From contig OZ024740.1 of the NCBI GenBank assembly GCA_964016885.1, positions 394,320,001 to 394,384,000 of the forward strand: a stretch of DNA of 64,000 nucleotides, given 5' to 3'. The notes under the pieces are model-generated. The model did not search any database, was not told the origin of the DNA, and worked only from the letters and a program-made list of their open reading frames with translations. Below, in pieces: positions 11,405 to 54,804 of the stretch. Source of the stretch: Eledone cirrhosa (lineage: Eukaryota). Position numbers and translations under genes: made by a program. Position 1 is the first letter of the stretch; every line of letters begins with the position of its first letter.

Positions 11405-11611
11405 TAGGACAGCACAAAGGAGAGACACGAAATAAAAACCTAGTTACTGAGGAGGTCACAGAATATGTGATGAAAGAGCTTTAATAATATATAAACAACC
11501 CTCCAGTTATCGAACTAACCAACCAACCAACAGAAAACGTATAATAAATTGAAGAGAAAACCAACTTGTGCGTGTGTTTTCATTGGTAGCATGACCCCCC
11601 TAAAGTATAAC

Positions 11612-11663: not shown

Positions 11664-11685
11664 CATACATATATATATATATATA

Positions 11686-13224
11686 TTTAATACAATAACA
11701 GAGATAGTTTAAAGCTAAACTCTGACTGGTAACCATCTCACTCAACAAACATTAGGTTATATTAAAATATAAACCCAATTTAAGTGTTTGGGGTGCTAAC
11801 AAAATGTATAATGTGGAAAACCAGTTGTTTCATTATAAGTTTTCTACAAGTTTGGGAGAATCTTTCCAGTTTATGTAGAAGCCTAATATATATTCATGTA
11901 AGAATATATTTAGGTGGGCACTTATAAATCGTCAGTGGAAGCCCATTAAACATTGATATAAGAAAACAAATTTCTTACCGCTGTCAAAAATCATGTCCGT
12001 AAATTAGCTCTCTCTCACCTCGAATGACCGCCAAATTTGAAATTCCAGCAGTTTTTGACTGAGGAAGTATCATAGCGACACGAAGCGGGAAGGGGAGACA
12101 ACCCACGAAATGAGGAAAAAAATAATATACACGCGGGTTAATTAGTTTTTTTGAAAACATTATCAATCCGACGTGTTTAAGAACTCAATTGAAAATAAAA
12201 AATAAATATTTGCTTGTATAAATTACACACGCATATAGATATTTTCTTAGGCTAAATCAGAAGTTGTACCCGAATAAGAACCGCTTCTCATAACCGCAGT
12301 AAATGCAGAAAGTTATGCTATAAAGGGCAAATGGGAATATAATTCTCCGGCCGAAATATTAAGAGTAAAATTTAAAACACACGCGGGTTAATTAGTTATT
12401 ACAAAACCAATATTAGTTCCTCGTGTAAAGAACTCAATTAATAAAAGAAAATAAATACACATATGCATGTAATTATATACGTAGGCATATATATATATTT
12501 TCCTAGGCTAAAAAACAGAGAAGTTACAACCAAAAAAGCAACAATATTTCACAACAGTAAAATACGGAAAGTCAAACTCATAAGGTACCTGGAAATAAAC
12601 ACCTCTGGCCAATCAAGAGTAAATATTTAATACAATAACAGAGATAATTTAAAGCTAAACTCTGACTGGTAACCATCTCACTCAACAAACATTAGGTTAT
12701 ATTAAAATATAAACCCAATTAAGTGTTTGGGTGCTAACAAAATGTATAATGTGGAAAACCAGTTGTATTATTTTATGAGATATAATTAAAGTTAAAGTAT
12801 ATCTCTCTTTCCAAACAATTGTTTACTTATAAGTTTTCTACAAGTTTGGGAGAATGTTTCCAGTTTATGAAGAAGCCTAATATATATTCATGTAAGAATA
12901 TATTTAGGTGGGCACTTATAAATCGTCAGTGGAAGCCCATTAAACATTGATATAAGAAAACAAATTTCTTACCGCTGCCAAAATTCATGTCCGTAAAGTA
13001 GCTCTCTCTCACCTCGAATGACCGCCAAATTTGAAATTCCAGCAGTTTTTGACTGAGGAAGTATCATAGCGACACGAAGCGGGAAGTGGAGACAACCCAC
13101 GAAATGAGGAAAAAAATAATATACACGCGGGTTAATTATTTTTTTTGAAAACATTATCAATCCGACGTGTTTAAGAACTCAATTGAAAATAAAAAAATAA
13201 ATATTTGCTTGTATAAATTACACA

Positions 13225-13230
<6 letters not shown>
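11686..13230 (-). mobile_element. tandemly duplicated PLE-like pLTR (period ~940 bp)
   Basis: 11686-12236 and 12626-13230 are near identical apart from a ~45-bp indel; diverged internal sub-repeat at ~12378-12520; each copy has a damaged minus-strand HHR; bounded by (TA)n. Confidence 0.7.
12809..12934 (-). ncRNA. type I hammerhead with branched stem II and a core mutation
   Basis: UUCCA-CUGACGA-U-UUAUAAG...CUUAUAA-GUAAA-CAAUUG-UU|UGGAA; the sister copy at 11825-11940 keeps U-GAAA but has lost the 3' side of stems III and I. Confidence 0.6.
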
Positions 13231-13298
<68 letters not shown>

Positions 13299-13418
13299 TG
13301 TGTAATTTATACAAGCAAATATTTATTTTTTTATTTTCAATTGAGTTCTTAAACACGTCGGATTGATAATGTTTTCAAAAAAAATAACTAACCCGCGTGT
13401 ATATTATTTTTTTCCTCA
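13105..13418. repeat. ~314-bp near-perfect palindrome centred on (TA)n
   Basis: Arms 13105-13228 and 13295-13418 with one mismatch seen; the ORF track gives identical 61-aa ORFs on both strands. Confidence 0.92.
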
Positions 13419-13528
13419 CGGCATAAATTCAGGCATAAATTCAGGCTGTTCAGTTTGTTTACAAACGAACAAAGCGGGCGCTATAATAAGCGTCCGCTAA
13501 ACTGATACGTACATATATGTATGTGTAC

Positions 13529-13593
<65 letters not shown>

Positions 13594-13743
13594 TGCTACT
13601 GTACGTCTGTATACATATATGTATGTACGTATACATACATACTTACATTTAAGTAAGTGCCGTATTAAGAGTGAGAAATGAAATTTCGTTTTCATTTTAT
13701 TACAACTTGTCGTTCTCGGTACGCCTGGCCGGACTCATTCGAT

Positions 13744-13751
13744 ATGCAAAT
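13744..13751 (+). promoter_or_regulatory. octamer motif ATGCAAAT (also at 14204-14211 and 14658-14665)
   Basis: Exact match ~80 nt upstream of each HHR; function is inferred only. Confidence 0.3.
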
Positions 13752-13825
13752 TAGGCTGCTCAGCCGTTAATTTTCATAAGGAAAGTATATACTTTCGAAC
13801 GTTCAACCATCTGGCAGAAGGGTAT

Positions 13826-13868
13826 ACGATGCTGATGACAGCTAACAAGCTTGAAACTAGTACATCGT
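13826..13868 (+). ncRNA. type I hammerhead ribozyme, array unit 1
   Basis: ACGAUG-CUGAUGA-C-AGCU-AACA-AGCU-U-GAAA-CUAG-UA|CAUCGU; 6-bp stem I, palindromic stem III ACUAGU, predicted cleavage after 13862. Confidence 0.8.
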
Positions 13869-14019
13869 TCCTGTGTCAGTGTTGAACAAAAAGGTGACGT
13901 GGTTGCCTTAACACCGTACGGCATAAATTCAGGCTGTTCAGTTTGTTTACAAACGAACAAAGCGGGCGCTATAATAAGCGTCCGCTAAACTGATACGTAC
14001 ATATATGTATGTGTACCTG

Positions 14020-14050
<31 letters not shown>

Positions 14051-14285
14051 GCATGCTACTGTACGTCTGTATACATATATGTATGTACGTATACATACAT
14101 ACTTACATTTAAGTAAGTGCCGTACTAAGAGTGAGAAATGAAATTTCGTTTTCATTTTATTACAACTTGTCGTTCTCGGTACGCCTGGCCGGACTCACTC
14201 GATATGCAAATTAGGCTGCTCAGCCGTTAATTTTCATAAGGAAAGTATATACTTTCGAACGTTCAACCATCTGGCAGAAGGGTAT

Positions 14286-14328
14286 ACGATGTTGATGATA
14301 GCTAACAAGCTTGAAACTAGTACATCGT
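14286..14328 (+). ncRNA. type I hammerhead ribozyme, array unit 2 (C3U variant)
   Basis: Same fold; the core reads UUGAUGA. Confidence 0.65.
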
Positions 14329-14739
14329 TCCTGTGTCAGTGTTGAACAAAAAGGTGACGTGGTTGGCTTAACACCGTACGGCATAAATTCAGGCTGTTCA
14401 GTTTGTTTACAAACGAACAAAGCGGGCGCTATAATAAGCGTCCGCTAAACTGATACGTACATATATGTATGTGTACCTGTATGTATATATATATATATAT
14501 ATATGCATGCTACTGTACGTCTGTATACATATATGTATGTACGTATACATACATACTTACATTTAAGTAAGTGCTGTACTAAGAGTGAGAAATGAAATTT
14601 CGTTTTCATTTTATTACAACTTGTCGTTCTCGGTACGCCTGGCCGGACTCACTCGATATGCAAATTAGGCTGCTCAGCCGTTAATTTTCATAAGGAAAGT
14701 ATATACTTTCGAACGTTCAACCATCTGGCAGAAGGGTAT

Positions 14740-14782
14740 ACGATGCTGATGATAGCTAACAAGCTTGAAACTAGTACATCGT
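14740..14782 (+). ncRNA. type I hammerhead ribozyme, array unit 3
   Basis: ACGAUG-CUGAUGA-U-AGCU-AACA-AGCU-U-GAAA-CUAG-UA|CAUCGU. Confidence 0.8.
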
Positions 14783-14933
14783 TCCTGTGTCAGTGTTGAA
14801 CAAAAAGGTGACGTGGTTGCCTTAACACCGTACGGCATAAATTCAGGCTGTTCAGTTTGTTTACAAACGAACAAAGCGGGCGCTATAATAAGCGTCCGCT
14901 AAACTGATACGTACATATATGTATGTGTACCTG

Positions 14934-14975
<42 letters not shown>

Positions 14976-15029
14976 TGCTACTGTACGTCTTTATACATAT
15001 ATGTATGTACGTATACATACATACTTACA

Positions 15030-15071
<42 letters not shown>

Positions 15072-15292
15072 AAACATATATATATATATATATATATATA
15101 TGTAGATAAATCTACCAAGAGTTTACGGTAGTGTCCAATCCGTATGAAGAACTCAATGTATTCCGGATATCATGGAAAGAAGAGATGTAATGAAAATCCA
15201 CTTTCGGTGAAAGATAAACGGTATACAGAGTCAAGATAAAATATTAAACAAATAATGAACAAACAATTCCTTATATTAAACAAAAAAAGTTC

Positions 15293-18577: not shown

Positions 18578-18757
18578 TTAATTAGGTTTATAATATTTAA
18601 ATGTTTTTTTTAGTTTATGATTACACGATATAATTAATTCTTGTCTTTTATTTAATAAGATATCCCTAGACTTCATTATTTCAAATAGTTCTTGGGAACA
18701 TAATCTACATTCCTTTCTATTATTTTGATAAGGGGTGGCTCTTTTGAGCACACTCCA
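18578..18757 (-). pseudogene. PLE GIY-YIG endonuclease C-terminal fragment
   Basis: My translation: WSVLKRATPYQNNRKECRLCSQELFEIMKSRDILLNKRQELIISCNHKLKKTFKYYKPN*; fits the WxIL..PY..CxLC..E...LLNKRxEL..CxH ending of aquatic-invertebrate PLE ORFs; absent from the ORF track. Confidence 0.75.
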
Positions 18758-37682: not shown

Positions 37683-40600
37683 GATTTCTTTATTAACCAC
37701 AAGGGTTTACATAAAGTAGACATTAAGGACAGTGCAGGACAATACAGTACGGTACAAATGGGCATTTCTGCGTGTAAAAAACAAAAACAGAGGATGTAAC
37801 AAAAAAATAACAATGAAAAATTCCCCAATAGGGGGGGAAACTTCGGAGGGACATTTGTGGGGAAAGCCCAGTAAAAGGCCACAGCGACCCTGACCACCAA
37901 GGCAAGTGCCCTCTCCCAGTTTTCCACCTTTAATTTACAGATATATACTCAGAGTAGGCATTCACTCGGGCCATTCTTGCTTCTCTCACCTATCTTTCAA
38001 CAAAATGCTGGGAAGAGAGCACTTCCCTCTCTACTCTGATTTTCCTTTTCAAATGAAATTTGAAAACGTCAATCAGGGAATCACCAAAGAGGTAAGTGCT
38101 CATCTTCAGCCCTTTCAAACGTGTCCACCATACTATCTCTTTCGCCATGGCCACCAGACAGATAAAAACTTCCTGCCCTTCCCGGCTAAAGGAGGAGGGC
38201 GGGGAAATCCTCACGATGGACTCAGATGATAGCCGGATCCGTCCTACACGCGACAGCAGGTGTTCGACATAAACCCACAAGTCAGCAATTTTCGGACACT
38301 GGACGAGTGCGTGCAGGACTGTTTCGTCGCCCTGCGCGCATCTCGGACATGCTCGGCTGACGGCACCTCCATGCCTGTAGAGTTTATCCCGAACTGGCAA
38401 GGCTCCTCGGTAGCACTGCCAGGCCAGAGATTTCTGGAAGTTGTCCATAGGCCCTGGCCCGAAAGTTCTTCCGAAGAGATTGGCTAGTTGATTTTCGTCG
38501 ACGCCTAGAGTTTCCCCAAGTACGTCGTCGCTCTTCCCCTCCACTAATCCTCTATAGAACGCCGAGGTGGAGTTTCCACCGATCACATTGCCCGATTGGT
38601 CTAGGGCTGTGAGCGACTGAAGACATTCCAGTCTCCAGGCGCTCCCTCTCGGTCTTCGCTTGACCCAGGACTACAGCTCCGTCAAAGAAACGAGCTGGGG
38701 AAATACGCGTCTAGCAAACGGCGACCACACCTGATCACCGTCGAGGTAGAGGTGGAGATATCGTAGCCTGAGCGCGTGCCTGCGCATCATCAGTCATGGC
38801 ATGCCCAGCCCTCCACGTAGCGGTGTTGACAACAGATGGACCGCCTGATCATCGGAGCGCGTCCCTTCCACAAAAAGCGAAAGAGCAAACGCTCCAGCGC
38901 AGTCAGGCGAGGCTTAGGACAAGGTACGACGGTCAGGCGGTAGCAGATGACAGACGTCACCTCGTCCCAGTTTTTGTCCGTCTGGAGGTCCGGACCGAAC
39001 CAGACCCCTAGCAATTTAACCGGCCCGTCCGTCCAGCGTCCGACGACGCTGTTGGACGACGGCATGGACCTGCCTCTCCAGGTGCCGAGCTGCAGGCCCA
39101 CTGACTTTTCCTGGTTGATCATTGCTCCTGTCACCGCTTCGTATTCTCTTAGTGTAGTGCCGATCGCCTCGATGTGTTTGGCGTTCGACACCAGTACGGT
39201 GAGATCGTCCGCATATGCTGACACGGATCTTCCGCATCCTAGTTCGCGCGGGACGCCCCTCAACGTCTCCAGTTTGTGCAGTAATGGCTCGAGAGTCAAT
39301 ACGTACAAGAGGGACGAGAGGGGACATCCTTGGCAGACCGAGCGCATGATGTTGAACGGTTCCGAAAGGTGACCGTTCACTCTCACCACAGAGCAGATGT
39401 CGCTGTGCATGGCAGCGATCCAGCCTCTGAAGACGGGCCCAAAGCCAGCCGCCCTCAGGACTGCTGCTAGGTAACGATGGTCGACCCTATCGAAAGCTTT
39501 CGACTGATCTAAATTGATCATGGACCCACCCGTGCCAGGTTCCCTAGCTACCCTCTCTACGATGTATCGCATGAGGTGGAGGTTGTCGTGGATGGATCTG
39601 TCGGGAATGGCGCATGTCTGCGCCTCTCCCACCAGACCACCAACGACAAGCGCCAACCTCTTTGCTAGCACCTTGGCCAAAATCTTGAACTCTGTGTTTA
39701 GCAGAGTTATGGGCCGGAAATTATCTATGTTATTCCCCTTGTTCGGATCCTTTCTCAGCAGTGCCACCGCTCCTCGGCTAACAGAACTGGGAATTCTCCC
39801 GTTCTGTTGCCAGTTGCAGTAGACGTCCGCCAAGAGGCCTCAGAACAAGTCTGGCATCTGTACGTAAAGTTCATTGGCAGACCATCCAAACCAGGCGATT
39901 TACCCCTTGTGCAGCCAGTCATTGCCTCCCTTACTTCAGCGGCTGTTATCGGCTTTTCGCAACACTCCGCCTCAGTGGCCGAGAGCCGCGGCAGTCCGTC
40001 GAGGTAGACACTAAAGTCCATCCCTCGACCCGGCCCACCGCTGCCTCCGAACACCTGAGCGAAGTGTCACTGAAAAGCTTCACACATTTTCCCAGGATCG
40101 AGTAGCATGCGCCCGTCGTGGTCCACCAAAGACCGGATCGTGGCTTTGTTGCCACGACGCGCCTCCGCCACTCGGGCCCATTGAACGGCTTTCGTCACAT
40201 CGTGTCTGAGAGCACGCACCCTAGCTCTGACAACGCAGCCTTCGTGCTTTGCATTGGAGAATTGGTCAAGGGCCAATTTCGCCGCAAGCACATCGGTCGC
40301 AATGCCTTTGCTAAGCGCCTCGTCTAATTTTCTAACTAGTTCTCCCTCTGCTCTATTTTTCTCTTTTGCTAAAGCCTTACTAAACCTAATCGATTCTATT
40401 CTAATCGCTCTATTCAGAGCAAACCACCACTTGTTGTTGACGATAGCCCCCGTCAACGCCCGCTTAACTAGTTCGCTAATCCGGTCTCTGTAGGCCTTGC
40501 GCGCTGGTAAGGACGCGTTTAGCTTCCAGTAACCGGGTCCTCCTCTATGAAGCCTATCTAAGTCAAGCACACAGATCACGAATTTGTGGTCCGTGTAGCT

Positions 40601-42053
40601 GACTATCTTGAATTGTGGACAGCCTATGCTAGACCTATCTATTTCCCTACAAAATACTCTATCTAGATATGATCTAGATGAACCTATGCGATTTGTCCAA
40701 GTCCACATTGGCACATTCGGGAAATCCAATCGGTACCTGTCAGACAGTTCAAAACGCCTGAGCAGGTTGGTGAGGCTCTTGCACCCTCCACCCCTATCCG
40801 CTAATCCCACACAGTCCCAGCATTCATCTAAGATCCCGTTCCAGTCGCCCACTAACACTAAAGAGCGGGACGTTCCAAGAAAGGTCTCCAGACGCCGGAA
40901 GAAATCAGGCCGCCCTGCTCCTGTCGGGGCATAGACGGCCACTAGCCTGAAAGCTTACCTGTCTCCGCTGGTCACGTCCGGCACCACCAACTTACCCTCT
41001 GGGTCCAGGAAGACGGCCCGTATGGCGAGATCCAAACCTCTCCGAAAAAGCACAGCAACTCCTCCCCCCGATCCAGGACGGCTGGGAGATGCGTACACAT
41101 CGTAGCCGCCGAATATCGGTGCGAAGGCCCGTGCTTCGGAGATTCTGGTCTCGCTGATGGCCACTACATCTATGTTTAGTGACCTGAGGCCTGTTGAGCA
41201 GGAGACCCTGCTTCCATGACGACCCCAAAACACGCGCATTTATGCTGCCTATTCTGAGTGAGGTCATGTTTAAAATAGAGTGGAAAAGAGGGGAAAGACC
41301 ACTTACCGTACTTTTCGTAGAGGAAGGATGGTTTTTCCATCCCTTTTCACTTGATCGTCTGGTGAAGGGACCGTTGAATCGTCCCTTCGGCTGGTCGTCG
41401 GCTCTTCTATGAGTATGTCCGAATATACTCTTCGGTTGCGTGCCCCTCCTAGGTCTCTGAAATCACCAACTGCGTTGGGGAATTTCGTTTTAATGTTTGT
41501 GTATTGTTTCTGTGCTATTTTTAGCAGTCTTATGTTAGTTGGCGTTTTGATTGGTGCTGGTATTATGTAGTCGTGTTGTGAAATGTCTGTGTGTTCAATT
41601 ATGTAAGTCATTAGTTTCTTGTTGTGTGTATTTATTGCCGTGCATTTGTTTTTCTGGGGGTGGGGTGTGGTTCTGCTATTTTCTTGTCGTTGTTGCTGGG
41701 TGTGTGTGTTTTGTTGTTGTGTTTGCGATGTTGGTTCTTGTGGTGGTGGTGTTGAAGGTGTTGTTGGCGGTGGGGTTGTCGCCGGTGGTGATGGTGGTGC
41801 TAGTGTGGGTGGTGATGGTGTTGGTGGTGTTGCTGCTGTGAGTCTCTTTGCAGTAGCCTTTACCCTTTTTTCATTTCTTCCCTCCCTTTTCAAAGGCCAC
41901 GATGCGCTGCTTCTGCGTTTGTGCCTTCTTACGACCTTTTGCCATCCCTCTCCCACCTCACACTCCATGTCTGATTCTGTGAGGTCGGGGAGGGGTACCA
42001 GCTCCACTCTTTCACTTGTTGTTGTTGGTGATGTTTGCAGCTGCATTTGGTAT
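37683..42053 (-). mobile_element. Tx1-clade LINE copy A (3' end to mid-ORF1)
   Basis: ORF2 with APE, RT and zinc finger, plus ORF1 C-terminus at 41303-42046; 3' end abuts (AAT)n. Confidence 0.9.
37990..41267 (-). pseudogene. Tx1 ORF2 (APE endonuclease, reverse transcriptase, C-terminal zinc finger), frameshifted
   Basis: SINAR, ISET, GDWN, LDR, TDH; PGLDG, FRPITLLN, LDQSKAFD, QGCPLS, YADD; CPRC...ETVLHALVQC. Confidence 0.92.
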
Positions 42054-42490
42054 TGAGCCGAGGAGCGGTGGCGCTTCTGAGAAAGGATCCGAACAAGGGA
42101 GATAACATTGATAATTTCAGGCCCATAACTCTGCTAAACCCAGAGTTCAAGATTTTGGCCAAGGTGCTAGCAAAGAGTTGGCGTTGTCATTGGTGGTCTG
42201 GTGGGAGAGGCGCAGACCTGCGCCATTCCCGATAGATCCATCCACGACAACCTCCGCCTCATGCGATACATCGTAGAGAGGGTAGCTAGGGAACCTGGCA
42301 CGGGTGGATCCTTGATCAATTTAGAACAGTCGAAAGCTTTCGATAGGGTCGACCATCGTTACCTAGCGGCAGTCCTGAGGCCTGCTGGCTTTGGGCGCGT
42401 CTTCAGAAGCTGGATCGCTGCCATGCACAACGATATCTGCTCTGTGCTGAGAGTGAACGGTCACCTTTCGGAACCGTTCAACATCATGCA
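42054..42490 (+). mobile_element. inverted Tx1 RT fragment
   Basis: Reverse complement of ~39344-39779 (FRPITLLN, QSKAFDRVDH). Confidence 0.9.
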
Positions 42491-45479
42491 GTAGACGCCC
42501 GCCAAGAGGCCTCCGAACAAGTCTGGCATCTGTACGTAAAGTTCATAGGGCAGACCATCCAAACCAGGCGATTTACCCCTTGTGCAGCCAATCATTGCCT
42601 CCCTTACTTCAGCGGCTGTTATCGGCTTTTCGCAACACTCCGCCTCAGTGGCCGAGAGCCACGGCAGTCCGTCGAGTTACACATTAAAGTCCATCCCTCG
42701 ACCCGGCCCACCGCTGCCCCCCGAACAGCTGAGCGAAGTGTCGCTGAAAAGCTTCACACATTTGCCCGGGATCGAGTAGCATGCGCCCGTCGTGGTCCAC
42801 GAAAGACCGGATCGTGGTTTTGTTGCCACGACGCGTCTCCGCCACTCGGGCCCATTGAACGGCTTTTGTCCCCTCGTGTCTGAGAGCACGCACCCTAGCT
42901 CTGACAACGGAGCATTCGTGCTTTGCATTGAAGAATTGGTCAAGGGCCAATTCTGCCGCAAGCACGTCGGTGTCGATGCCTTTGCTAAGCGCCTCGTCTA
43001 ATTTTCTAACTAATTCTCCCTCTGCTCCTTTTTTCTCTATTGCTAAAGCCTGCTTCCATGACGACCCCAAGCCACGCGCATTTATGCTGCCTATTCTGAG
43101 TGAGGTCATGTTTAAAATAGAGTGGAAAAGATGGGAAAGACCACTTACCGTACTTTTCGTAGAGGAAGGATGGTTTTTCCATCCCTTTTCACTTGATCGT
43201 CTGGTGAAGGGACCGTTGAATCGTCCCTTCGGCTGGTCGTCGGCTCTTCTATGAGTATGTCCAAATATACTCTTCGGTTGAGTGCCCCTCCTAGGTCTCT
43301 GAAATCACCAACTGCGTTGGGGAATTTCGTTTTAATGTTTGTGTATTGTTTCTGTGCTATTTTTAGCAGTCTTATGTTAGTTGGCGTTTTGATTGGTGCT
43401 GGTATTATGTAGTCGTGTTGTGAAATGTCTGGGTGTTCAATTATGTAAGTCATTAGTTTCTTGTTGTGTGTATTTATTGCCGTGCATTTGCTTTTCTGGG
43501 GATGGGGTGTGGTTCTGCTATTTTCTTGTCGTTGTTGCTGGGTGTGTGTGTTTTGTTGTTGTGTTTGCGATGTTGGTTCTTGTGGTGGTGGTGTTGAAGG
43601 TGTTGTTGTTGTTGGCGGTGGGGTTGTCGCCGGTGGTGATGGTGTTGCTTGTGTGGGTGGTGATGGTGTTGGTGGTGTTGCTGCTGTGAGTCTCTTTGCA
43701 GTAGCCTTTACCCTTTTTTCATTTCTTTCCTCCCTTTTCGAAGGCGACGATGCGCTGCTTCTGCGTTTGTGCCTTCTTACGACCTTTTGCCATCCCTCTC
43801 CCACCTCACATTCCATGTCTGATTCTGTGAGGTGAGGGAGGGGTACCAGCTCCACTCTTTCACTTGTTGTTGTTGGTGATGTTTGCACTGGAGTCTCTGT
43901 TGCAGCTGCATTTGGTATTACTGTTGTTGTTGTTAATACTTCCACTGCTGCTGCTGTTTTTGATTTCCGTGGCGTGTGTATGGGTGCCACGGACCTATCG
44001 TTCCTGGTTGCCGCTTGTCCTGTTGTTGATAGCCGTGGAGCCGGTTTCGGAAGGAGGGGGGTTTTCTCCTTTCTCAGGGTCTTCTCGTTGCAGAAGGCCC
44101 TGAGGTGAGTTTTCGATCCACAGCGAAAGCATTTCGGGCGTTTGCCCTCAACACTTATGGGTAGTTCAGTGCCGTTATCGAAGTCTATCACATCCGGGAT
44201 AGCTTCGATGCACTCCTGGTTGGTTTGGATTAACATCTCAATGGAGGTGCCGACCCAATTTTCTCTTACTTTTTTCTGTACTTGCAGTAGAGTTGTTTTG
44301 TCCTCGATTCCGACGAGGACAGACGCGGCCAGCGAGGAAGGGGCCATCCCGGGGGGGGGGGGGGGCGTAGGTCAGTTTGACCCTCACAATTTTTTGCCCG
44401 CAGTAGGAGGGCACCAACACCATTTCCTCGCTCCTTAGGGTCACTAAGGATTGAGCCTTTGCCTCCTGGGGTGTGGCAAAAAGCACGTCTACGGTGGCAT
44501 ATTTCTTGCCTGGGGTGATGTGCGTTTTCCGCTGCCACACAGACCCTAAGGCTTTTTGTATTTGAGCCTCTGTGGCACTTTCAACCCTACGGGATTTTGT
44601 GCTTACTGTACGGTACGTGACCGTACAGTGCTGTTGGGTTTCGAAAAATGTTTCGGCTGCCTTGCAGATTGCTCGGTGTCCGGTTTTTGTCACCATCTTC
44701 TTCGCTTCCTGCAATTCCTCATTTGTTATGAGGATGGTTTCCAGGTTCTTTGCGATACCTGCAAACGAGATTGGTTTTTCTTTGCTGCTATTGTTGTTGT
44801 TGTTGTTGTCGTCAGAGCTGCTGTTACTTTTGTTGTTGCTGCAGGTACTACGACTACTGCCGCCGCCGCTGTTGCTGTGGCTGCTGCTGTTGTTGCTGCT
44901 AATGCTGTTGTTGTTTATGCTGCTGCTGATGCTGTTGCGGCTGCTACTGTTGTTTCCTTGTCACTGTTGCTGCTGCCGCTGTTATTACGGCTGCTACTGC
45001 TATTATTCCTGACGTCAGACGAATGAAATGGGTTTTCGTATTTCCCGCACACCTTTTTCGTCGTTGTCGTCGTCGTCGGGGAGAAATGTTGCACGCTTTG
45101 CACGTGATTTCTCTTTACTGGCGTCGCTTGCGAAAGAGAAGGGAGGGAGAGAGACACACTTAGAGAAGGGAGGGAGCGAGACAATCTTCTCTCTGCTGTA
45201 GTGACGATTGAGGAAGAAGAAGACGGAATGAGTGGGAGTGACCTATGAAAATTCTTTTTCGTAGCCATGTTTTTTTTTTGTTTAAAATAAATATTGGGCA
45301 CAAAACCCCAATAAGCGGTTATTTAACCCCGAAGGGCCAAATAACGGGCAGAGAGACCCCTCTCGCGAGGAGGAGGGTGTTTTTGTCTACAATTTGGTTA
45401 AAGTTTTAAACAATTTACAATTGTTATAGCGGTCAAAATTTACAATACTTTACAGAGCCGTGCCTCCGTCAACCATAGC
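42488..45479 (-). mobile_element. Tx1 copy B (5' UTR, ORF1, internally deleted ORF2 start)
   Basis: 43047-43920 duplicates 41207-42053; ORF2 start is fused in frame to the post-APE region at ~43049. Confidence 0.88.
43145..45268 (-). pseudogene. Tx1 ORF1 gag-like protein with CCHC knuckle
   Basis: RPKCFRCGSKTHLRAFC; frameshift at G-run 44351-44365 and a premature stop near 44915. Confidence 0.85.
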
Positions 45480-45497
45480 ATTCAATAATAATAATAA

Positions 45498-45605
45498 TTG
45501 TTTCTACTTTAGGCACAAGGCCAGCAATTACCCAGTGCATTACTGGTACTTTATTTTATCGACCCCGTAAGGATGAAAGGCAAAGTCAACCTCGGCGGGA
45601 TTTGA
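45498..45605 (-). mobile_element. 5'-truncated Nin-domain SINE
   Basis: Reverse complement of the SINE body; 18-bp TSD ATTCAATAATAATAATAA at 45480-45497 and 45606-45623. Confidence 0.85.
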
Positions 45606-45623
45606 ATTCAATAATAATAATAA

Positions 45624-48078
45624 GAAGAAGAAGATGTTGTTTGGACAGCTTGAAGGGAAAGAAAGAAGCAACGACTTGATCCCTGAGGCGGAATAAGCTA
45701 AAACATTCTGGAGAGGAATATGGGAGCAGGATGTTAAACATAATGACCAGGCAGTGTGGATTGAGACAGTACAGAAGGAGATCAGTGAACAGGCACACCA
45801 ACAAACTGATTTGAGTATCACAGTTAAAACTCTTAAGGAGCAGGCCAAAAAACTAACGAACTGGAAATCACCAGGCCCAGATGGTGTGCAGGGGTATTGG
45901 ATTAAAAATATAACATCCCTCCACCCGAAACTGACAACCATGTTCAATGACTGCTTGATGTCAGGTGAGGTACCAGAGTGGTTGACAAAAGGTACCACAG
46001 TTCTAATAATGAAAGACCGAATCAAGGGTAATGATGTTACCAACTATAGACCTATCACATGTCTGTCCGTAATGGGGAAACTGTTGACAAGCATTATGTC
46101 TGAGGAAATCTACCATCACCTCCACACAAACAACTTGTTACCGGACGAACAGAAAGGATGCCGAAAGAAGTCACGTGGTACAAAGGACCAGTTACTTATT
46201 GATAAGATGGTAATGGGGATTTGCAAGAGGAGACACACTGATCTTGCCATGGGATGGATAGACTACAGAAAGGCATTTGACATGGTGCCTCATTCTTGGA
46301 TCACCAAAAGCCTGGAGATCTTCAAGGTGGCAGATAAGATCAGACAGTTGTTGGGCAAAATTATGAAGTCCTGGGAAACAGAGTTAACATCAACTGGAGA
46401 ATCCTTGGGAAGCGTGAAGATCAAGAGAGGTATCTTCCAGGGAGATAGTCTGTCCCCTCTGTTGTTTGTCCTTGCCCTGATGCCCCTGACCAGTGTACTG
46501 CGAAAAGTGAGAGCAGGATACAGGTTGGGAAAGGGAGGGCTTACCATAAATCACCTCCTCTTCATGGACGATCTTAAGCTCTTCGGGAAGAGTGAGAAGG
46601 AGTTGGATGTGCTTGTTGACACTGTCCGTATTTTCAGCAATGATATATGTATGCAATTTGGTATTAGAAAGTGTGGAGTCATTGTGATGAGGAAGGGTAA
46701 GTTGAGCAGAAGTAACGGAATCCAGATACCAACAGGTGAGATGATAAAGGAAATTGACTCTGAGGAAGGATACAAGTATTTGGGCGTTCTGGAGGCTGAT
46801 GACATCAAGAACAAAAAAAATGAAGGAATTGATAAGAACTGAATACTTTCGGAGAGTAAGGAGCGTATTAAAGTCACATCTGAACAGTAGGAATGCCATA
46901 AGTGCAGTAAATTCCCGAGCTGTGTCTATTATTAGGTACAGTGCGGGAATTCTGAGATGGAATGTTGCTGAACAAAAAGAAATGGATAGGAAGACTAGGA
47001 AGCTATTGACTATCTACAACATGTTCCACAAGAAGAGTGATGTCGATAGACTCTACTTAAGGAGATCTGAGGGTGGAAGAGGTCTTATCAACATAGAGGA
47101 CTGTGTTCAGATGGAGAAAAACAACCTACACAAATACGTGACTGATAGTAAGGAGCCAATGCTCAGAACTGTACTGAAGGAGGGGACAATAGGCCAGGGG
47201 ATGTCCAAGGAGGAAATAACATCAAGGAGAAAGAGCAGCCTTCAGGAAAAATCCCTTCATAGTACATTCTTTGAGAGAACTGAATTTAGAGATCCACAGA
47301 CATGGAACTGGTTGAAAAGAGGAGACCTTAAAAAGGCTACAGAAGGAATGTTAATGGCTGCGCAGGAGCAGGCCCTCAAAACGAAGTGGTTGAAACACCA
47401 CATTTACAAGGAGGAGGCTAGTTCACTGTGCAGGATCTGTGGAGAGAGAGAGGAGACTGTGGCTCACATTGTATCCGAGTGTAAACACCTAGCGCAGACT
47501 CACTATAAGGGCTGGAGACATGATGTGATGGGCAGGGTGATCCACTGGCACCTATGCAAAGTAAACAATTTACCACATTCTGAGAAGTGGTATGAGCATA
47601 AGCCAGAGGCGGTGATAGAAAACGATCAGGTGAAGGTGCTGTGGGATTTTAGGATACAGACGGACAAGAAACTGAAACACAATAGACCTGACCTGGTGGT
47701 TTTGGACAAAGAAAAAAGATCGTGCCTGATTGTGGATGTGGCCTGCCCATTCGACACGAGAGTGCAAAAGAAGGAGAGGGAGAAAATTAACCGATACCAG
47801 GACTTAAAGTGGGAGGTAAAAAGGATTTGGAACTGCCATGAAGTCAAAGTGATCCCGATTGTCATAGGCGCACTAGGTACTATCTCAAAAAGTTTCCAGG
47901 GATGGTGAAAGAAAATTGGCCCCTTCACGCTTTTTGGAACGCTTCAAAAGCATGCTTGCTGGGAACAGCAAGAACCCTCCGATACGTCCTGAATATCTGA
48001 GGCTGCAGGTAGTGGCTTGATATTCATTTCAACAAACTTTCCAGTTAACTAACATCAATGACTGAGACTCAAAGAGTA
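45624..48078 (+). mobile_element. Dong/R4-clade LINE, 5'-truncated, RT plus restriction-like endonuclease
   Basis: NWKSPGPDG, YRPITCL, DYRKAFD, GIFQGDSLSPL, LFMDD; CRIC...HIVSEC, RHD, RPD..D RLE; frameshift at A-run ~46813-46819 and TGA at 47906. Confidence 0.93.
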
Positions 48079-48298
48079 ATTTTATTATTTATATAAGAAA
48101 AGAAAAAAGACATAAAACATATATATATATAAACAAAAAAATGAAAATTGAAACAATGAAAAATTCCCCAATAGGGGAGAAACCTCCGAGGGTTACTCGT
48201 GGCGAAAACCACATAAAAGACCACGGCCACCCTGACGACCAGGGCAAGCGCCCTCTCTTAATTTTTCCATCTCTCAAACTACAGACGTATATTCAGAG

Positions 48299-48458
48299 TG
48301 GAACGCTTCAAAAGGCATGCTTGCTGGGAACAGCAAGAACCCTCCGTTACGTCCTGAATATCTGAGGCTGCAGGTAGCGGCTTGATATTCATCTCAACAA
48401 ATTTTCCAGTTAACTAACATCAATGACTGAGACTCAAAGAGTAATAACAATAATAATG
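48299..48458 (+). mobile_element. short Dong 3' tail nested at the end of Tx1 copy C ORF2
   Basis: Duplicates 47935-48078 and ends in (AAT)n; interrupts sequence that is contiguous in copy A. Confidence 0.85.
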
Positions 48459-51400
48459 ACCATTCTCGCTACATTCACCCACCTTTCAACAAACTTGCTA
48501 GAAAACAGCACTTGCCTCTCCACCCTGATTCTCCTCTTCAAGTGAAACTTGAAAAAGTTAATCAGGGATTCGCCGAAGAGGAAAGTGTTTGTCTTTAATC
48601 CTTTTAACCTTGTCCACCACACAATCTCTTTCGCCATGGCCACCAGGCAGATGAAAACCGCCTGCCCTTCCTCCTCAAAGGAAGACGGCGAGACCATCTG
48701 CACAATGGACTCAGTCGACAACCGGATCAGTCCCACACGTGACAGCAACTGTTCGACATAGCTCCACAAGTCAGCAATGCTCGGACACTGATCGAGTGCG
48801 TTCACAACGGTTTCGTCGCTATGCACGCATCTCGGACAGGCTCGGCTGACGGCATTTCCGTGCCTGTAGAGCTTATCTCGAACCGGCAGCGCTCCCCGGT
48901 AGCACTGCCAGGCCAGGGATTTTTGGAAGTTATCCATACGTCCCGGGCTGAAAGTTCTTCGGAAGAGAGCAAGCAGCTGATCTTCTTCGACGCCCAGGAT
49001 CTCTCCGAGAACGTCGTCGCTCTTCCTCTCCACTAGTCCTCTATAGAACGCCGAGGTGGATGTTCCACCGATACTCGTGCCCAACTGGGAGAGGGCAGTG
49101 AGCGCCTGGAGACATTCCAGTTTCCAAGCGCTATCCCTCGGTCTTTTTCTGACCCAGGACTGCAGCTCCGTCAAGGAGACGAGCTGTGGGAAAATGTGCC
49201 TGGCAAACGGCGACCACACCCGTTCACCATCAAGGAAGCACCAGAGATGTCCCAGCCTCAGCGCATGTTTGCGCATCATCAGCCATGGCATGCCCAGTCC
49301 TCCACGCAACGGGTGTTGACAGCAGATGGATCGTCTGACCATGGGAGCGCGTCCCTTCCACAAAAAGCGGAAGAGGAGGCGCTTCATTTTGGTGAGAGTT
49401 GGGCTGGAGCAAGGGACGACGGTGAGGCGGTAGCAGATGACGGATGCGATGTACGCAATCGCCACTTCCGCCGGCCTTTCAGGGACAGCTTCCTCTCAGC
49501 CCATTTCTGGGTGAGGGAGGCCACCCTGCTCGTCACCTCGTTCCAGTTTTTCTCCATCTGGAGGTCCGGTCCGAACCAGACCCCGAGCAATTTAACCGGT
49601 CCGTCCGTCCAACGCCCCACGACGCTGTCGGACGGCATGGACTTGCCTCTTCAGGTGCCTAGCTGCAAGCCCACCGACTTTTCCTGGTTTATCTTTGCTC
49701 CTGTCACCATTTCGTATTCCTTGAGAGCGGTGCCGAGCATCTGGACGTGTCTGGTGCTCGACACCACCACGGTGACGTCGTCAGCGTAAGCCGACTCGGA
49801 TTTCCCGCATCCTAGTTCGCGTGGGACGCCCCTCATCGCCCCCAGTTTGTGCAGTAACGGCTGGAGAGCCAATACGTACAAGAGGGACGAGAGGGGACAA
49901 CCCTGGCGGACTGAGCGCATGATGCTGAACGGCTGCGACAGGTGACCGTTCACCCTCACAACTGAGCAGATGTCGCTGTACATTGCTGCGATCCAACGCC
50001 TGAAAACAGGCCCGAAACCGGCTGCCTCGAGGACCGCCGCCAGGTACCGATGGTCGACCCTATCAAATGCTTTGGATTGATCCAAGTTGATCAGGGCCCC
50101 ACCCTTGCCAGGTTCCTTAACCACCCTCTCTATGATGTATCGCATGAGGTGGAGGTTGTCGTGTATGGATCTGTCCGGGATGGCGCATGTCTGCGCCTCT
50201 CCCACCAGACCCTTGACGACAAGCGCCAACCTCGTTGCTAACACCTTGGCCAAAATCTTGAACTCTGCGTTTAGCAGGGTTATGGCCTGAAATTATCAAT
50301 AACATCCCCCTTGTTCGGGTATTTTCTCAGCAGCGCCAGTGCTCCCCGGCTCACAAAACTGGGAATGCTCCCGTTCTGCTGCCAGTTGCAGTAGACGTCT
50401 GCCAAGAGGTCACCGAACAAGTCTGGCATAAATGCATAAAGCTCGTAGGGCAGACCATCTAAACCTGGCGATTTACCTCTTGTGCAGTTAGCCATCGCTT
50501 CCCGTATTTCACCGGCTGTTATTGGCTTTTCGCAACACTGTGCTGCGGTCGTCGAGAGCCGAGGCAGTCCGTCAAGGTATGCACTGAAGTCCATGTCCCG
50601 ATCTGGGCCGCCGCCGCTCCCGAACAGTTCAGCAAAGTGCTGCTGAAAAGCTTCACACTCGGCTCGGGTTCGAGCATCACGCACCCGTTTTGGTCAGACA
50701 AAGACCGAATTGTGGCTTTATTGCCACGTCGCGCCTCTGCCACCCGGGCCCATTGGACGGCTTTTGTCCACTCGTGTTTCAGAGCACGCGCTCTAGCTCT
50801 GACAACGCAGCCTTCGTGTTTTGCGTTGAAGAATTGGTCGAGTGCCAATCTCGCCGCAAGCACGTCGGTTGTGATGCCTGTCCTAAATGCCTCTTCTAGC
50901 TTTCTGACTAGCTCTCCCTCTACTCTATTTTCCTCTATCACTACACCTTTGCTAAACCTAATCGACTCTACTTTAATTGCCCTTTTCAGGGCAAACCACC
51001 ACCTGTTGTTGACGACCGCTCCCGTCAACGCCCGCTTAACTAATACGCTAATCCGGTCTCTGTAGGCCTTGCGCGCCGGGAAAGACGCGTTCAGCTTCCA
51101 GTAACCAGGCCCTTGTCTATGTAGACTGTCTATGTCGATCTCACAGATCACAAATTTGTGGTCTGTGTAGTCGACTATTTTAAATTGTGGACAACTTATA
51201 CTAGCCTTATCTACTTCCCTGCAGAATACCCTATCTAGATACGATCTGGATGACCCGATGCGGTTTCTCCATGTCCACATTGGCACATTCGGGTGATCCA
51301 GTCGATACCTGTCAGACAGTTCAAAACGTCTGAGCAGGTTGGTGAGACTCTTGCACCATCCTCCCCTATCCACTAGCCCCACACGATCCCAGCGTGCATC

Positions 51401-51838
51401 CAAGATACCGTTCCAGTCGCCCACTAACACTAAAGAGCGGGACGTTCCAAGAAAGGTCTCTAGACGTCTGAAGAAATCTGGCCGTCCTGCCCCTGTTGGG
51501 GTGTAGACGGCTACTAGCCTGAAAGCATTGCCTTCGCTGCCGGTCACGTCCAGCACCACCGACTTACCTTCTGGGTCCAGGAAGATGGCCCGTATCGCGA
51601 GATCCAAGCCTCTCCGAAAAAGGACGGCAACCCCTCCCCCCGATCCTGGACGGCTGGGAGATGCGTATACATCGTAGCCGCCGAAGATCGGTGCGAAGGC
51701 CCGTGCCTCGGAGATTCTGGTTTCACTGATGGCCACCACATCTATGTTTAGTGACCTGAGGTCATTGAGCAGGTGACCCTGCTTCCAAGATGACCCCAGG
51801 CCACGTGCATTTATACTGCCTATTCTGAGTACAGCCAT
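48459..51838 (-). pseudogene. Tx1 ORF2 (APE-RT-zinc finger), frameshifted
   Basis: MAVLRIGSINARG, GDWN, TDH, PGLDGLPYE, LDQSKAFD, RQGCPLS, YADD, CPRC...C spread over five ORF-track pieces. Confidence 0.92.
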
Positions 51839-51874
51839 GTTGGATGTGAAACGGGGCAAATGAGAAAGGGTCAC

Positions 51875-53888
51875 TTACCTTGTTCGTGTGGTGAAGGGAC
51901 AGTAGAACCGTCCCTTTCGCTGGTCATGGGTGTTTCCAAGAGGATTTCAGTGTATATCCTCGTGGTAACCGTCCCTCTGAAGTCTCCAACTGCATTGGAG
52001 AATTTTTGTTTTAAAGGTTTGTATTGTTCTAATGAGATTTCGATGATGCTTATGTTTGTCGGGAGAGTTCTTGGTGTTGGTGGGGGTGTAGTAATTTTTT
52101 TCCGTGATGTCTGTGTGCTGCTTTATATATTTTATGAGTTCTTTTTTTGCTATGTTTATGGCTGTGTACTTTTTTGGGGGAGAGGTGATTTTGTTGCCGT
52201 TTTCTTCTTGTTGCTGTTTGGTGTGTGTGTCTTGTTGTGTTTGCGTTGTTGGTGTTTGTGGTGGTTTCCTTGCTGCCTTTACCCCTCTTTGTATGCCTTC
52301 GCTTTTGGAGGGTGAATCTAAGGTTTTTTTTTGTTTTTTGTTTTTGTGGCAGACTGTTTGCCACGTCACTCCCGCCTCAAACTCCATGTCGGATTCTGTG
52401 GCGTCTGGGGGGGGGGGGTATGTGCTCCGCGGCTGTTGGTGGTGGTAGTGGAGCCCTCTTCGGCAATGTTGTTGCTGGTGTAGCTATTTCAAATGTAGCT
52501 ATTGGTGTTGCCGCTACTGATGATGCTGCTTTAGTTATCCGTGGCCTTGGTACGGGTGCTACGGACGTTGCCCTCCTACTCACCGTGGAAGGGGCTTCTT
52601 CGTTTGTTGCCTGTCCTGCTCTTGGTAGCAGCGGACCAGGTATTGGAAGGAGAGGGGCCCTCTTCGGTGTCTTCTGCGGGCAAAAGGCCCTGAGGTGACT
52701 TTTCGACCCACAGAGATAACATTTTGGCCGTCTTCCTTCTACACTTATAGGGAGTTGGAGTCCTTCCTCAAAGTCTATGATATCGGGGATAGCCTCGATA
52801 CATTCCTGGTCAGTTTGTATAAGCATTTGCATGCCTATACCTGACCAGTTCTCTCTCCCTATTTTCTCTACTTGCAGCAAGGTCGCCCTGCTCTCAATTC
52901 CAGCAAGGACAGACGCGGCCAGCCAAGGTATGGGCACGTCGGGTGGAACCTGGGTCACTTTGACCCTCACAATTTTCTGCCCGCAGTAGGAGGGCACCAA
53001 GACTAACTCCTCACTCTTTAGGGTTTCCAAAGAGTGAGACTTTGTTTCCTGGCGGGTGGCGAAAAGTACGTCTACTGTGGCGTACTTTCTGCCTCGGGTG
53101 ATGTGGGTTTTGCGTGCCCAGACGCACCCCAAGGTCTTTTGGATTTGAGCCTCCGTGGCTCTCTCCACTCGATGTGAGATTTTGCTTACGGTGCGGTAAG
53201 TCACCGTTCGTAGATGCTGGTCCTTGAAAAATTCGGGTGGAGGTTTCAGGGAAACTCTATTTGCGCTTCTTGTCACCATGACCCTTGCGACTGCCATCTC
53301 CTCTTCTGTAACTAACACTGTCTCGATATTTCGGGCGACACCTGCAAAAGAAGTGGTCCCTTTTTCAGCAGCACCACTATTGCTGCCGCTACTGGTCTTA
53401 CTGGTGGTGCTGAGGTCGCTTTTACAGGTATCGGTGTCATTGTTGTTGGTGTTGTTTTCGTTGATACTGTTGCTGCTGTTACTGTTATTGTGGCTGTTGT
53501 TATTATTGTTGTTTTTGTTGATAGTGTTCCTACTATTATTGTTGTTGTGGCTGTTGTTATGGTCATTGTTATTGTCGTTCTCGACTTTACCGCTGTTATT
53601 TTTGTTATTGTCGTTCTCGACCTTACCGCTGTTATTTTTGTTATTGTCGTTCTCGACTTTACCGCTGTTATTTTTGGTGTTGTTGTTGGTGATGTTGTTG
53701 GTGTTATTGTTGGTGTTGTTTGTGTTAGAAATATTTGTTAATTTTAAATCTGTAACAATCTTTTTTTCCTTTGTAATATTTTCGTTTATATTTACCTCCG
53801 CTGGAACGCTGTCTTGTTGACATGCTGATAAAGTCTCCCTCTCTCTGTATTGTCTGACAGCGCTCTCTCTCTTTTTTGTGTTATCCAT
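51875..53888 (-). pseudogene. Tx1 ORF1 with Asn-rich N-terminus and CCHC knuckle
   Basis: RPKCYLCGSKSHLRAFC; ~3 x 36-bp NNSGKVENDNNK repeats; frameshift at G-run ~52407-52418. Confidence 0.87.
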
Positions 53889-54804
53889 GTTGAAATTTTT
53901 CAAAAAATATTTTTACACAAATACGAATACGACACCCCGTAAAGGGGTGCCGTATTATTTACTAGTGAACCCCTGTATTAGGTGGGTCACTTCTAAACTT
54001 TTATCCAATTTAAAACTTGAATAAAAGGTTTAGAACAGTTGAAAAAGAGGTAAAACGTTGAAAAAGACTGGAGGCAATAAGAAGCGTGGCTTCACCAACC
54101 AATAATAATAATAATAATAATAATAATAGTTTCTTAATGATAATGACAGTAATAAATGTATAGAATGTTATAAAATATATAGATTACTTATAATATAAAA
54201 TACAATAGATAAAACAATATATAATAAATTATATTATTGAGCAAAATCGAACCAATTGGAAGCAAATAAAGATATAGTTCCTGAATCAATAAAACGTTGT
54301 CGAACGGAAATAAACAAATTTAAAGTAGAAAATGAAAAAATTAACTCAAGTGCTGTTTGTTTAGTAGATTATCAAATTAACACATCAATAATATTGTTAA
54401 CAAATCAGTGAAAATCGAGGAAAATTATAACGAAAAACAAAAGTAGAAATATTAAAGATAAATTAAAACAGAACAAATGATTTCTGTTCTTTATAACATT
54501 TATCGAAAATATAAAATCAAAAACAAAAAAAAAAAAAGAGACGACAAAAAAAAAAAACCCTCGCAATTTTGTGTTAAATATAGTCTTGTAGAAATATCGA
54601 TAATAACAATTTTGAATATTTTCCGCGGGACTAATTTCAAATTTGGTTGCAGACAATTAACGTTTTAATACACAAACATACATGGATTTACATACACACA
54701 CATACACACAAACAAACCCACACCCAGACACATTCAAGTGTCTGCGTCCACTCACACCCTCATATGTACACATATAAACACACACACACACATATATATA
54801 TATA

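Follow-up and report, generated by a model that had tools for sequence, protein, structure and literature searches.

The tandem array analyzed here is probably a copy of a high-copy, non-coding, non-LTR retrozyme of Eledone cirrhosa, for whose mobilization Penelope-like elements (PLEs) likely provide the reverse transcriptase-endonuclease in trans. This reading is given a probability of about 0.8. The array lies in the window, i.e., the whole 64,000-nucleotide stretch of contig OZ024740.1 that was analyzed. Elements of this kind are already described from mussel, coral, axolotl, and Xenopus; what is new is the family itself. It joins retrozymes to the PLE machinery by the anatomy of its insertions rather than by co-occurrence. 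It shows most of the testable features of both a non-LTR retrozyme and a non-autonomous PLE, and cleavage and circles are predicted from its sequence. The available parts of the literature (PMC11167929, PMC7229834) leave open which enzyme moves animal retrozymes, how PLE integration is completed, and how the inverted one-tailed structures form. No description of the family was found in the literature on retrozymes and hammerheads in octopus, in cephalopods, and in PLEs, a scope outside which repeat libraries fall. The available part of a paper on the repeats of Octopus vulgaris does not mention ribozymes.

The array consists of ~3.5 head-to-tail units of 454-460 bp each, and three of the units are closed by a type I hammerhead motif (Table 1). 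TRF detected a period of 460/454 bp at 13560-15037 with 3.2 copies and 96% matches, and a truncated 5' unit moves the start to 13418. The initial annotation, made from the letters alone, had described ~3.5 tandem units of this length, which the TRF period and the three motifs bear out. The hairpins (GC and ACUUAC/GUAAGU) and the 16-nt palindrome that it listed were also recovered in their places. The GC content of the unit is 36-38%, and the longest ATG-started frame has 54 codons. Units differ in length because of the variable (TA)n inside the TA-rich palindrome. The GC hairpin shows double changes between subfamilies at five of its nine pairs. The palindrome GAAAGTATATACTTTC is the inversion point in one insertion (L067) and is absent from part of subfamily B. 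The window copy is of the tail-less type, with its 3' terminus at q239-240 in (TA)n.

Table 1. Features of the array and its borders in the window (q, position in the unit).
Feature	Position	Strand	Remarks
Whole insertion, 5'-truncated tandem array	13418..15029	+	Begins near unit position 57; stops at the short 3' end, q239-240
Unit 1, 5'-truncated	13418..13862	+	12-nt duplication (GGCATAAATTCA x2) at the junction; longer (TA)n
Unit 2, complete	13863..14322	+	460 nt between cut sites
Unit 3, complete	14323..14776	+	454 nt; reference for unit positions q1-q454
Final partial unit, q1-q239	14777..15029	+	Stops within the loop of the ACUUAC/GUAAGU hairpin
Hammerhead motif 1, type I	13826..13868	+	Core intact; C.U at stem II base
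Hammerhead motif 2, type I	14286..14328	+	C3U at 14292
Hammerhead motif 3, type I	14740..14782	+	Core intact; U.U at stem II base
Extended stem I, predicted	14715..14801	+	14715-14739 pairs with 14783-14801; UAU bulge; same in every unit
GC hairpin, TATAATAA-type loop	14421..14446; also 13473-13498, 13961-13986, 14875-14900	+	
TA-rich imperfect palindrome inside the unit	14453..14561	+	Variable (TA)n
ACUUAC/GUAAGU stem-loop	14555..14572; also 13641-13658, 14101-14118	+	Marks the short 3' end of the family
~60-nt "tail", q240-q300	14562..14622	+	Internal in the window copy; its end is the long 3' end of the family
Palindrome GAAAGTATATACTTTC, 16 nt	14695..14710; also 13781-13796, 14241-14256	+	
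Inverted copy of the left flank, 123 bp	13296..13418	-	Source 13105-13227 around (AT)34; abuts the array 5' end; 1 mismatch
(TA)n run at the array 3' end	15030..15101	.	Inferred insertion target

Each hammerhead motif is composed of stem I (ACGAUG/CAUCGU), CUGAUGA, a U.U or C.U followed by stem II (AGCU/AGCU), GAAA, the palindromic ACUAGU, and the GUA triplet. The initial annotation had assigned such a type I hammerhead, with ACUAGU as stem III, to every full unit, and three motifs were located. Cuts are predicted before 13863, 14323, and 14777, and their spacing of 460 and 454 agrees with the monomer lengths that it had proposed. The C3U change that it noted in unit 2 is real. It is in the middle ribozyme, and therefore two monomers of the window copy would rely on a weakened site. 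A structure scan on both strands of the 64 kb gave three matches, which are the three motifs, and 0 matches in 50 block shuffles. A comparison with Rfam hammerhead models, which had been suggested along with these claims, gave only Hammerhead_HH9; its score of 18-19 bits (E 0.05 and 0.01) is far below the cut-off, which is 52. When the whole 64-kb window was searched with Rfam, no hammerhead was seen among the 150 of 238 matches listed, all of which were miRNA matches driven by microsatellites.

The motif fits the canonical metazoan type I hammerhead, which has a 6-bp stem I, a 4-bp stem II, and a short palindromic stem III (PMC4209133). It has the conserved core, a stem I of 6 bp, a stem II of 4 bp, a stem III of 1-2 bp, and a palindromic loop. 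The usual G10.1-C11.1 pair at the base of stem II is missing, with U.U in nearly all of 233 copies. The axolotl HHR_Amex2 is active and has the same U.U departure at this position (PMC7229834). Because U.U replaces G10.1-C11.1 and stem III has only 1-2 bp, the hammerhead activity may be low. In Xenopus, one of nine retrozyme dimers was cleaved in vitro (10.64898/2026.07.22.740005). The extended stem I is predicted to close the monomer into a fold compatible with a circle.

The family is abundant in the 3.0-Gb genome. The 35-nt core has 10,491 exact matches (control, 0), and a looser core has 28,533 (control, 5). At 1.97 motifs per insertion, the value in the sample described below, this corresponds to roughly 14,500 insertions and about 0.4% of the genome. 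A genome-wide check of copy number had been suggested for the unit, and the looser-core matches characterize it as dispersed and high-copy. The family has no LTR architecture, and its GC content is under 45-50%. Subfamilies are 78-97% alike, and the youngest copies, on separate contigs, are 99-100% alike. A second subfamily group found with BLAST has units of 420-430 nt and is 78-83% alike. Subfamilies have young bursts of their own, at 97-100% identity. In contigs of four sequencing runs, whose kind is unrecorded, the family is present and variants were seen. Among six runs listed as containing the family, none was of RNA, and small shares in runs from two other organisms were left aside.

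The initial annotation had staked its proposal on a core that is conserved across genomic copies. Of 233 copies, 211 have all 12 bases of the core intact; for loci chosen independently of the core pattern, the figure is 96 of 108 copies. Among the majority sequences of four subfamilies, 4 of 33 unconstrained hammerhead columns differ versus 92 of 311 other columns (p = 0.04); the 10 columns that the extraction motif had fixed are not counted. The test was not significant on the set without subfamily B. The four differing columns are the two sides of a stem I pair that covaries, N7, and the loop of stem II. In the 233 copies, this pair is G.U in 126, U.G in 64, A-U in 39, and U-A in one, and it is unpaired in three. 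In a set of 19 natural monomers, double changes occur at 10 of the 78 pairs predicted, and 97.9% of cells are paired versus 29-40% when slid. Most of this covariation comes from a single subfamily split, and the same sequences had served to derive the structure. When four monomers were folded as circles, z was -7 to -9; the microsatellite-free part gave -5.2. The pattern of motif variation across copies is compatible with function. The constancy of the core and the covariation of stems appear as signs of selection on an RNA, predicted to be a ribozyme.

The anatomy of insertions points to PLEs. Insertions were mapped at 92 loci of contig 1, sampled mostly from its first 70 Mb and picked for holding a core. 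There were 102 motif-bearing insertions, and 100 were kept after two at edges were set aside. Half of them (50/100) are head-to-head inversions, in which the tail is on one arm in 45 cases, on neither in five, and on both in none; two of the 45 one-tailed inversions are a single duplicated event. In 28 pairs, the arms of an inversion differ by 2.0%, compared with 6.7% between loci. The 3' ends fall at two fixed places separated by about 60 nt: a short end at q239-243, which follows an AC-rich run, and a long end at q293-300. In the first sample, which includes 83 arm ends, 35 ends are at q290-300, 28 are at q237-247, three are earlier, and 17 are uncalled. (TA)n is at the terminus of 52 of 55 tailed arms. 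The 5' ends (149 starts) are scattered over the whole unit, which corresponds to random 5' truncation. One or two motifs are present in 79 of the 100 insertions, and some insertions have 9-11. Non-LTR retrozymes have TSDs of more than 4 bp where these are present. The (TA)n flanks of the family obscure TSDs; one 9-bp duplication, judged by eye, was seen in L239.

The hallmarks of PLE insertions are 5' truncation, tandems, an inverted 5' copy, and a one-sided tail (bioRxiv 2021.04.23.441226, PMC8557442). The tail is the stretch between two internal reverse transcriptase (RT) start sites, and the PLE protein cuts and extends both strands (PMC11167929). In the same genome, three Neptune-like PLE families have short and long 3' ends, 40-65 nt apart, at (TA)n, and a Neptune-like inverted pair (L160) has a single tail. 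Because its insertion ends match the PLE signature, the retrozyme family is very likely, on the evidence of genomic copies, to be mobilized by PLE-type machinery. The ACUUAC/GUAAGU stem-loop appears to be RT start site 1, and the long 3' end of the family appears to be RT start site 2. The family supplies thousands of near-identical natural insertions and, as a small test substrate, a short RNA on which two putative start sites are mapped. It generates DNA palindromes at (TA)n sites.

A simple fold-back of one arm was considered as the general cause of inversions and was rejected. The tail-less arm is longer in L064, L076, and L083, and the tailed arm of L066 holds sequence that the other arm lacks. 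In L064, each arm is followed by the same flank stretch of ~26 nt, inverted relative to the other. A probable fold-back is seen at the 5' end of the window array. The 123-bp inverted copy of the left flank and the copy adjacent to it share one base that is absent in 13 other loci of the flank family. Because there is a single mismatch and this base is private to the adjacent copy, the inverted copy is likely to be a local fold-back that arose at insertion. Palindromes of non-element DNA by the 5' junction, resembling that of the window, are present in the 5' flanks of L089, L090, and L099.

HINEs, which are associated with Helitrons, have an internal microsatellite, hairpins, and tandem arrays, and the family resembles them in all of these. 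It is extremely unlikely, however, that the unit is a HINE-type or satellite repeat in which a hammerhead-like motif occurs by chance. The 5' termini are scattered rather than fixed, and so the unit is not a Helitron end, a possibility raised in the initial annotation. Its 3' ends and inversions are of the PLE type. Against a satellite, the copies are dispersed, mostly with one or two motifs per locus; against chance, the motif had no match in the shuffles and its variation is compatible with function.

The initial annotation had attributed mobilization to neighboring Penelope-like RTs. The insertion anatomy supports PLE machinery, but not its neighborhood: the RT frames in the window belong to APE/RT/zf-RVT LINEs. 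The comparison of nine PLE proteins with the window gave only one match, a short endonuclease fragment at 18584-18757. Broken copies of APE/RT/zf-RVT LINEs form a cluster at 37990-53912, which includes an RT frame pair at 45697-47908 (+). This pair presumably carries a restriction-like endonuclease motif, and the RT frames of the window are taken, from their motifs, to be Tx1/L1 and R4/Dong. LINEs are thus abundant nearby, and close junctions with an RTE-like ORF are present at two loci, as might be expected for a SINE-like element moved by a LINE (RTE, R4/Dong, or Tx1). Such an element is nevertheless very improbable here. The unit has no tRNA gene and no sense-strand B box, and it contains three T4 runs. 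In addition, the combination of two internal 3' ends and a one-sided tail is described as unique to PLEs in the available part of PMC11167929.

The genome is rich in elements with RT plus GIY-YIG (10,596 candidates, 150 of them scored), which by motif are Neptune-like and Hydra-like. In the 50 GIY-YIG loci fetched, the unit is never a terminus; only separate insertions of the family are present. The comparison of 3' regions and junctions for similarity to a partner gave no match. Same-strand junctions with a Hydra-type ORF are seen at L074 and L077, and the two close junctions with the RTE-like LINE are of the same sort. At L239, the element has inserted within a Hydra ORF. Because the RTE-like junctions match the Hydra-type ones and L239 lies in a Hydra ORF, no partner can be named. 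The joins at L074 and L077 are possible template-switch chimeras. Hydra-type PLE frames, with CxCX5C, CxxC, and CxH, are abundant in flanks; the frame of L090 (4761-6833) is intact, and that of L064 (1224-2300) is 5'-truncated. Downstream of the ORF of a Neptune-like PLE at L146, L147, L150, and L154, there is a hammerhead-shaped motif whose core is degenerate (UUGAAAA instead of CUGANGA); the tail there is 65 nt long. This Neptune-like family (L146, L147, L150) and the Hydra-type family of L090 are candidate partners.

Another possibility raised in the initial annotation was that the unit is the pLTR of an ORF-bearing PLE. Among the 100 mapped insertions it is not, since an ORF for RT plus GIY-YIG lies between the repeats in none of them. 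Alternatively, the units could be orphan pLTRs, that is, 5'-truncated ends of an autonomous PLE that were amplified locally. Truncation at the 5' end is usual among PLE insertions, and hammerheads of this sort occur in pLTRs (PMC8557442, PMC4209133); the 50 PLE loci checked are a part of many. This origin is still improbable, as arrays of up to 11 units run on from one unit to the next across q300-q301, and no intact PLE ORF leads into the unit in the 100 insertions. A Neptune copy does precede the insertion L111, but its sister copies have no unit. The young bursts of separate subfamilies also argue against orphan pLTRs.

The genomic copies bear on the form of the RNA template. Genome-wide, 15,372 copies of q1-24 were found; the 10 nt before the cut site are kept in 14,173 of them (92%), and the next 10 nt downstream are kept in 12,910 (84%). 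Among the first 100 of these copies, the exact upstream 10-mer is missing in 12, owing to 10 point changes and two truncations near the site. There is no pile-up of 5' ends at the cut site, with 2 of 149 starts within 6 nt. Judging from these copies, cut linear monomers are rarely the template. Because 92% of copies are continuous across the cut site, the template would be either a ligated circle or an uncut multimer.

A circular template is slightly favored. If copying is instead from uncleaved linear multimers, there is no circle in the PLE-mobilized cycle, and the hammerhead serves only to trim 5' flanks or is carried along as a passenger. Insertion of the anole PLE does not depend on hammerhead cleavage, and uncut RNA is its main substrate; RNA-seq ends at the hammerhead site were not found, according to the available part of that study (PMC11167929). 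The hammerhead motif of the family is weak, and the seamless junctions and the lack of a 5' pile-up fit a linear template equally well. Arrays are homogeneous, yet in 21 of 25 arrays another locus is as close or closer, so that a master made of homogeneous multimers would account for them just as well as a circle. Copying from linear multimers is, however, rather doubtful and well short of an even chance. The core is kept across subfamilies that are only 78-83% alike. Each round truncates, leaving one or two motifs in most insertions, yet arrays of 9-11 exist, which suggests that multimers are regenerated. Retrozymes of coral, mussel, and axolotl accumulate as circles (PMC7229834).

In the reading preferred here, a retrozyme moved by PLE protein, the arrays would be transcribed by read-through. 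The weak hammerheads would then cut, probably as dimers via the ACUAGU palindrome, and the monomers would likely be ligated into circles. The PLE protein would cut DNA at (TA)n and prime reverse transcription from positions inside the RNA. Where both DNA ends prime on the same RNA, one would use the long site and the other the short site, leading to an inverted pair with one tail. Tandem units would result from running round a circle or along an uncut multimer. In its most specific form, which is tentative and a little short of even odds, a PLE dimer would reverse-transcribe a ribozyme-made circle starting at the two ends of a single DNA break, with a different fixed start site on the same circle for each end. 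If true, this two-site priming on a circle would explain the one-tail rule (45/50, none two-tailed), the matched arms, and the regenerated tandems. A 450-nt substrate would then also provide the second-end step still missing for Penelope integration.

The family shares several features with the metazoan non-LTR retrozymes, as described in the available text of Cervera and de la Pena 2020 (PMC7229834): non-coding tandem units that each carry a type I hammerhead, GC content under 45%, copy numbers in the thousands, and a highly self-paired monomer. In its hammerhead, a 1-bp palindromic stem III like that of HHR_Amex1 occurs together with the U.U seen in HHR_Amex2. The monomer is 420-460+ nt in the family versus about 170-400 in those retrozymes. 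The family differs in its internal (TA)n, in (TA)n targets that hide TSDs, and in the inversions and tail of PLEs, which do not appear in that text. Expression and circles were demonstrated for those retrozymes and are proposed for the family. Vertebrate retrozymes were interpreted as non-autonomous PLEs by Li, Clavereau, and Pollet (bioRxiv 10.64898/2026.07.22.740005), and the same dependence on PLEs is concluded here. Their conclusion is based, in the available part of the preprint, on co-occurrence in Xenopus and pLTR similarity, with no mollusc included, whereas the present one is based on insertion anatomy, without a pLTR match.

EN+ PLEs of the Neptune and Hydra clades (PMC8557442) share with the family 5' truncation, partial tandems, the inverted 5' copy, the one-sided tail, and the bias to (TA)n. 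In anole Poseidon (PMC11167929), a hammerhead likewise precedes two internal sites of RT start, and the short end also follows an AC-rich run. Compared with EN+ PLEs, the family has no ORF, its tail is about 60 nt rather than 30-40, and the element is under 0.5 kb. Chlamys PLEs such as MRC1 (PMC8557442) are likewise non-autonomous and form multicopy head-to-tail insertions. Their 3' ends are like those of their partners, and most are described in the available text as having no canonical hammerheads, unlike the family.

Other repeats and hammerheads were observed in the window and at the sampled loci. A tandem repeat of ~1-kb units (1.6 copies), unrelated to the family, is at 11680-13227 (+) of the window and ends at (TA)n; it has 2,037 candidates genome-wide, and the structure scan found no canonical hammerhead in it. 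A further high-copy repeat, recognized by contig depth, lies beside (TA)n at 15100-15250. At L064 (6300-8350), there is a second tandem hammerhead family, with seven 310-bp units, an inverted copy, and the same short and long ends. At least eight other families of hammerhead motifs were seen in L061-L162, many of them with a mismatch at the stem II base and a palindromic stem III. A degenerate hammerhead-like motif at 11420-11480 (+) of the window is akin to the GGTCACAG family of other loci.
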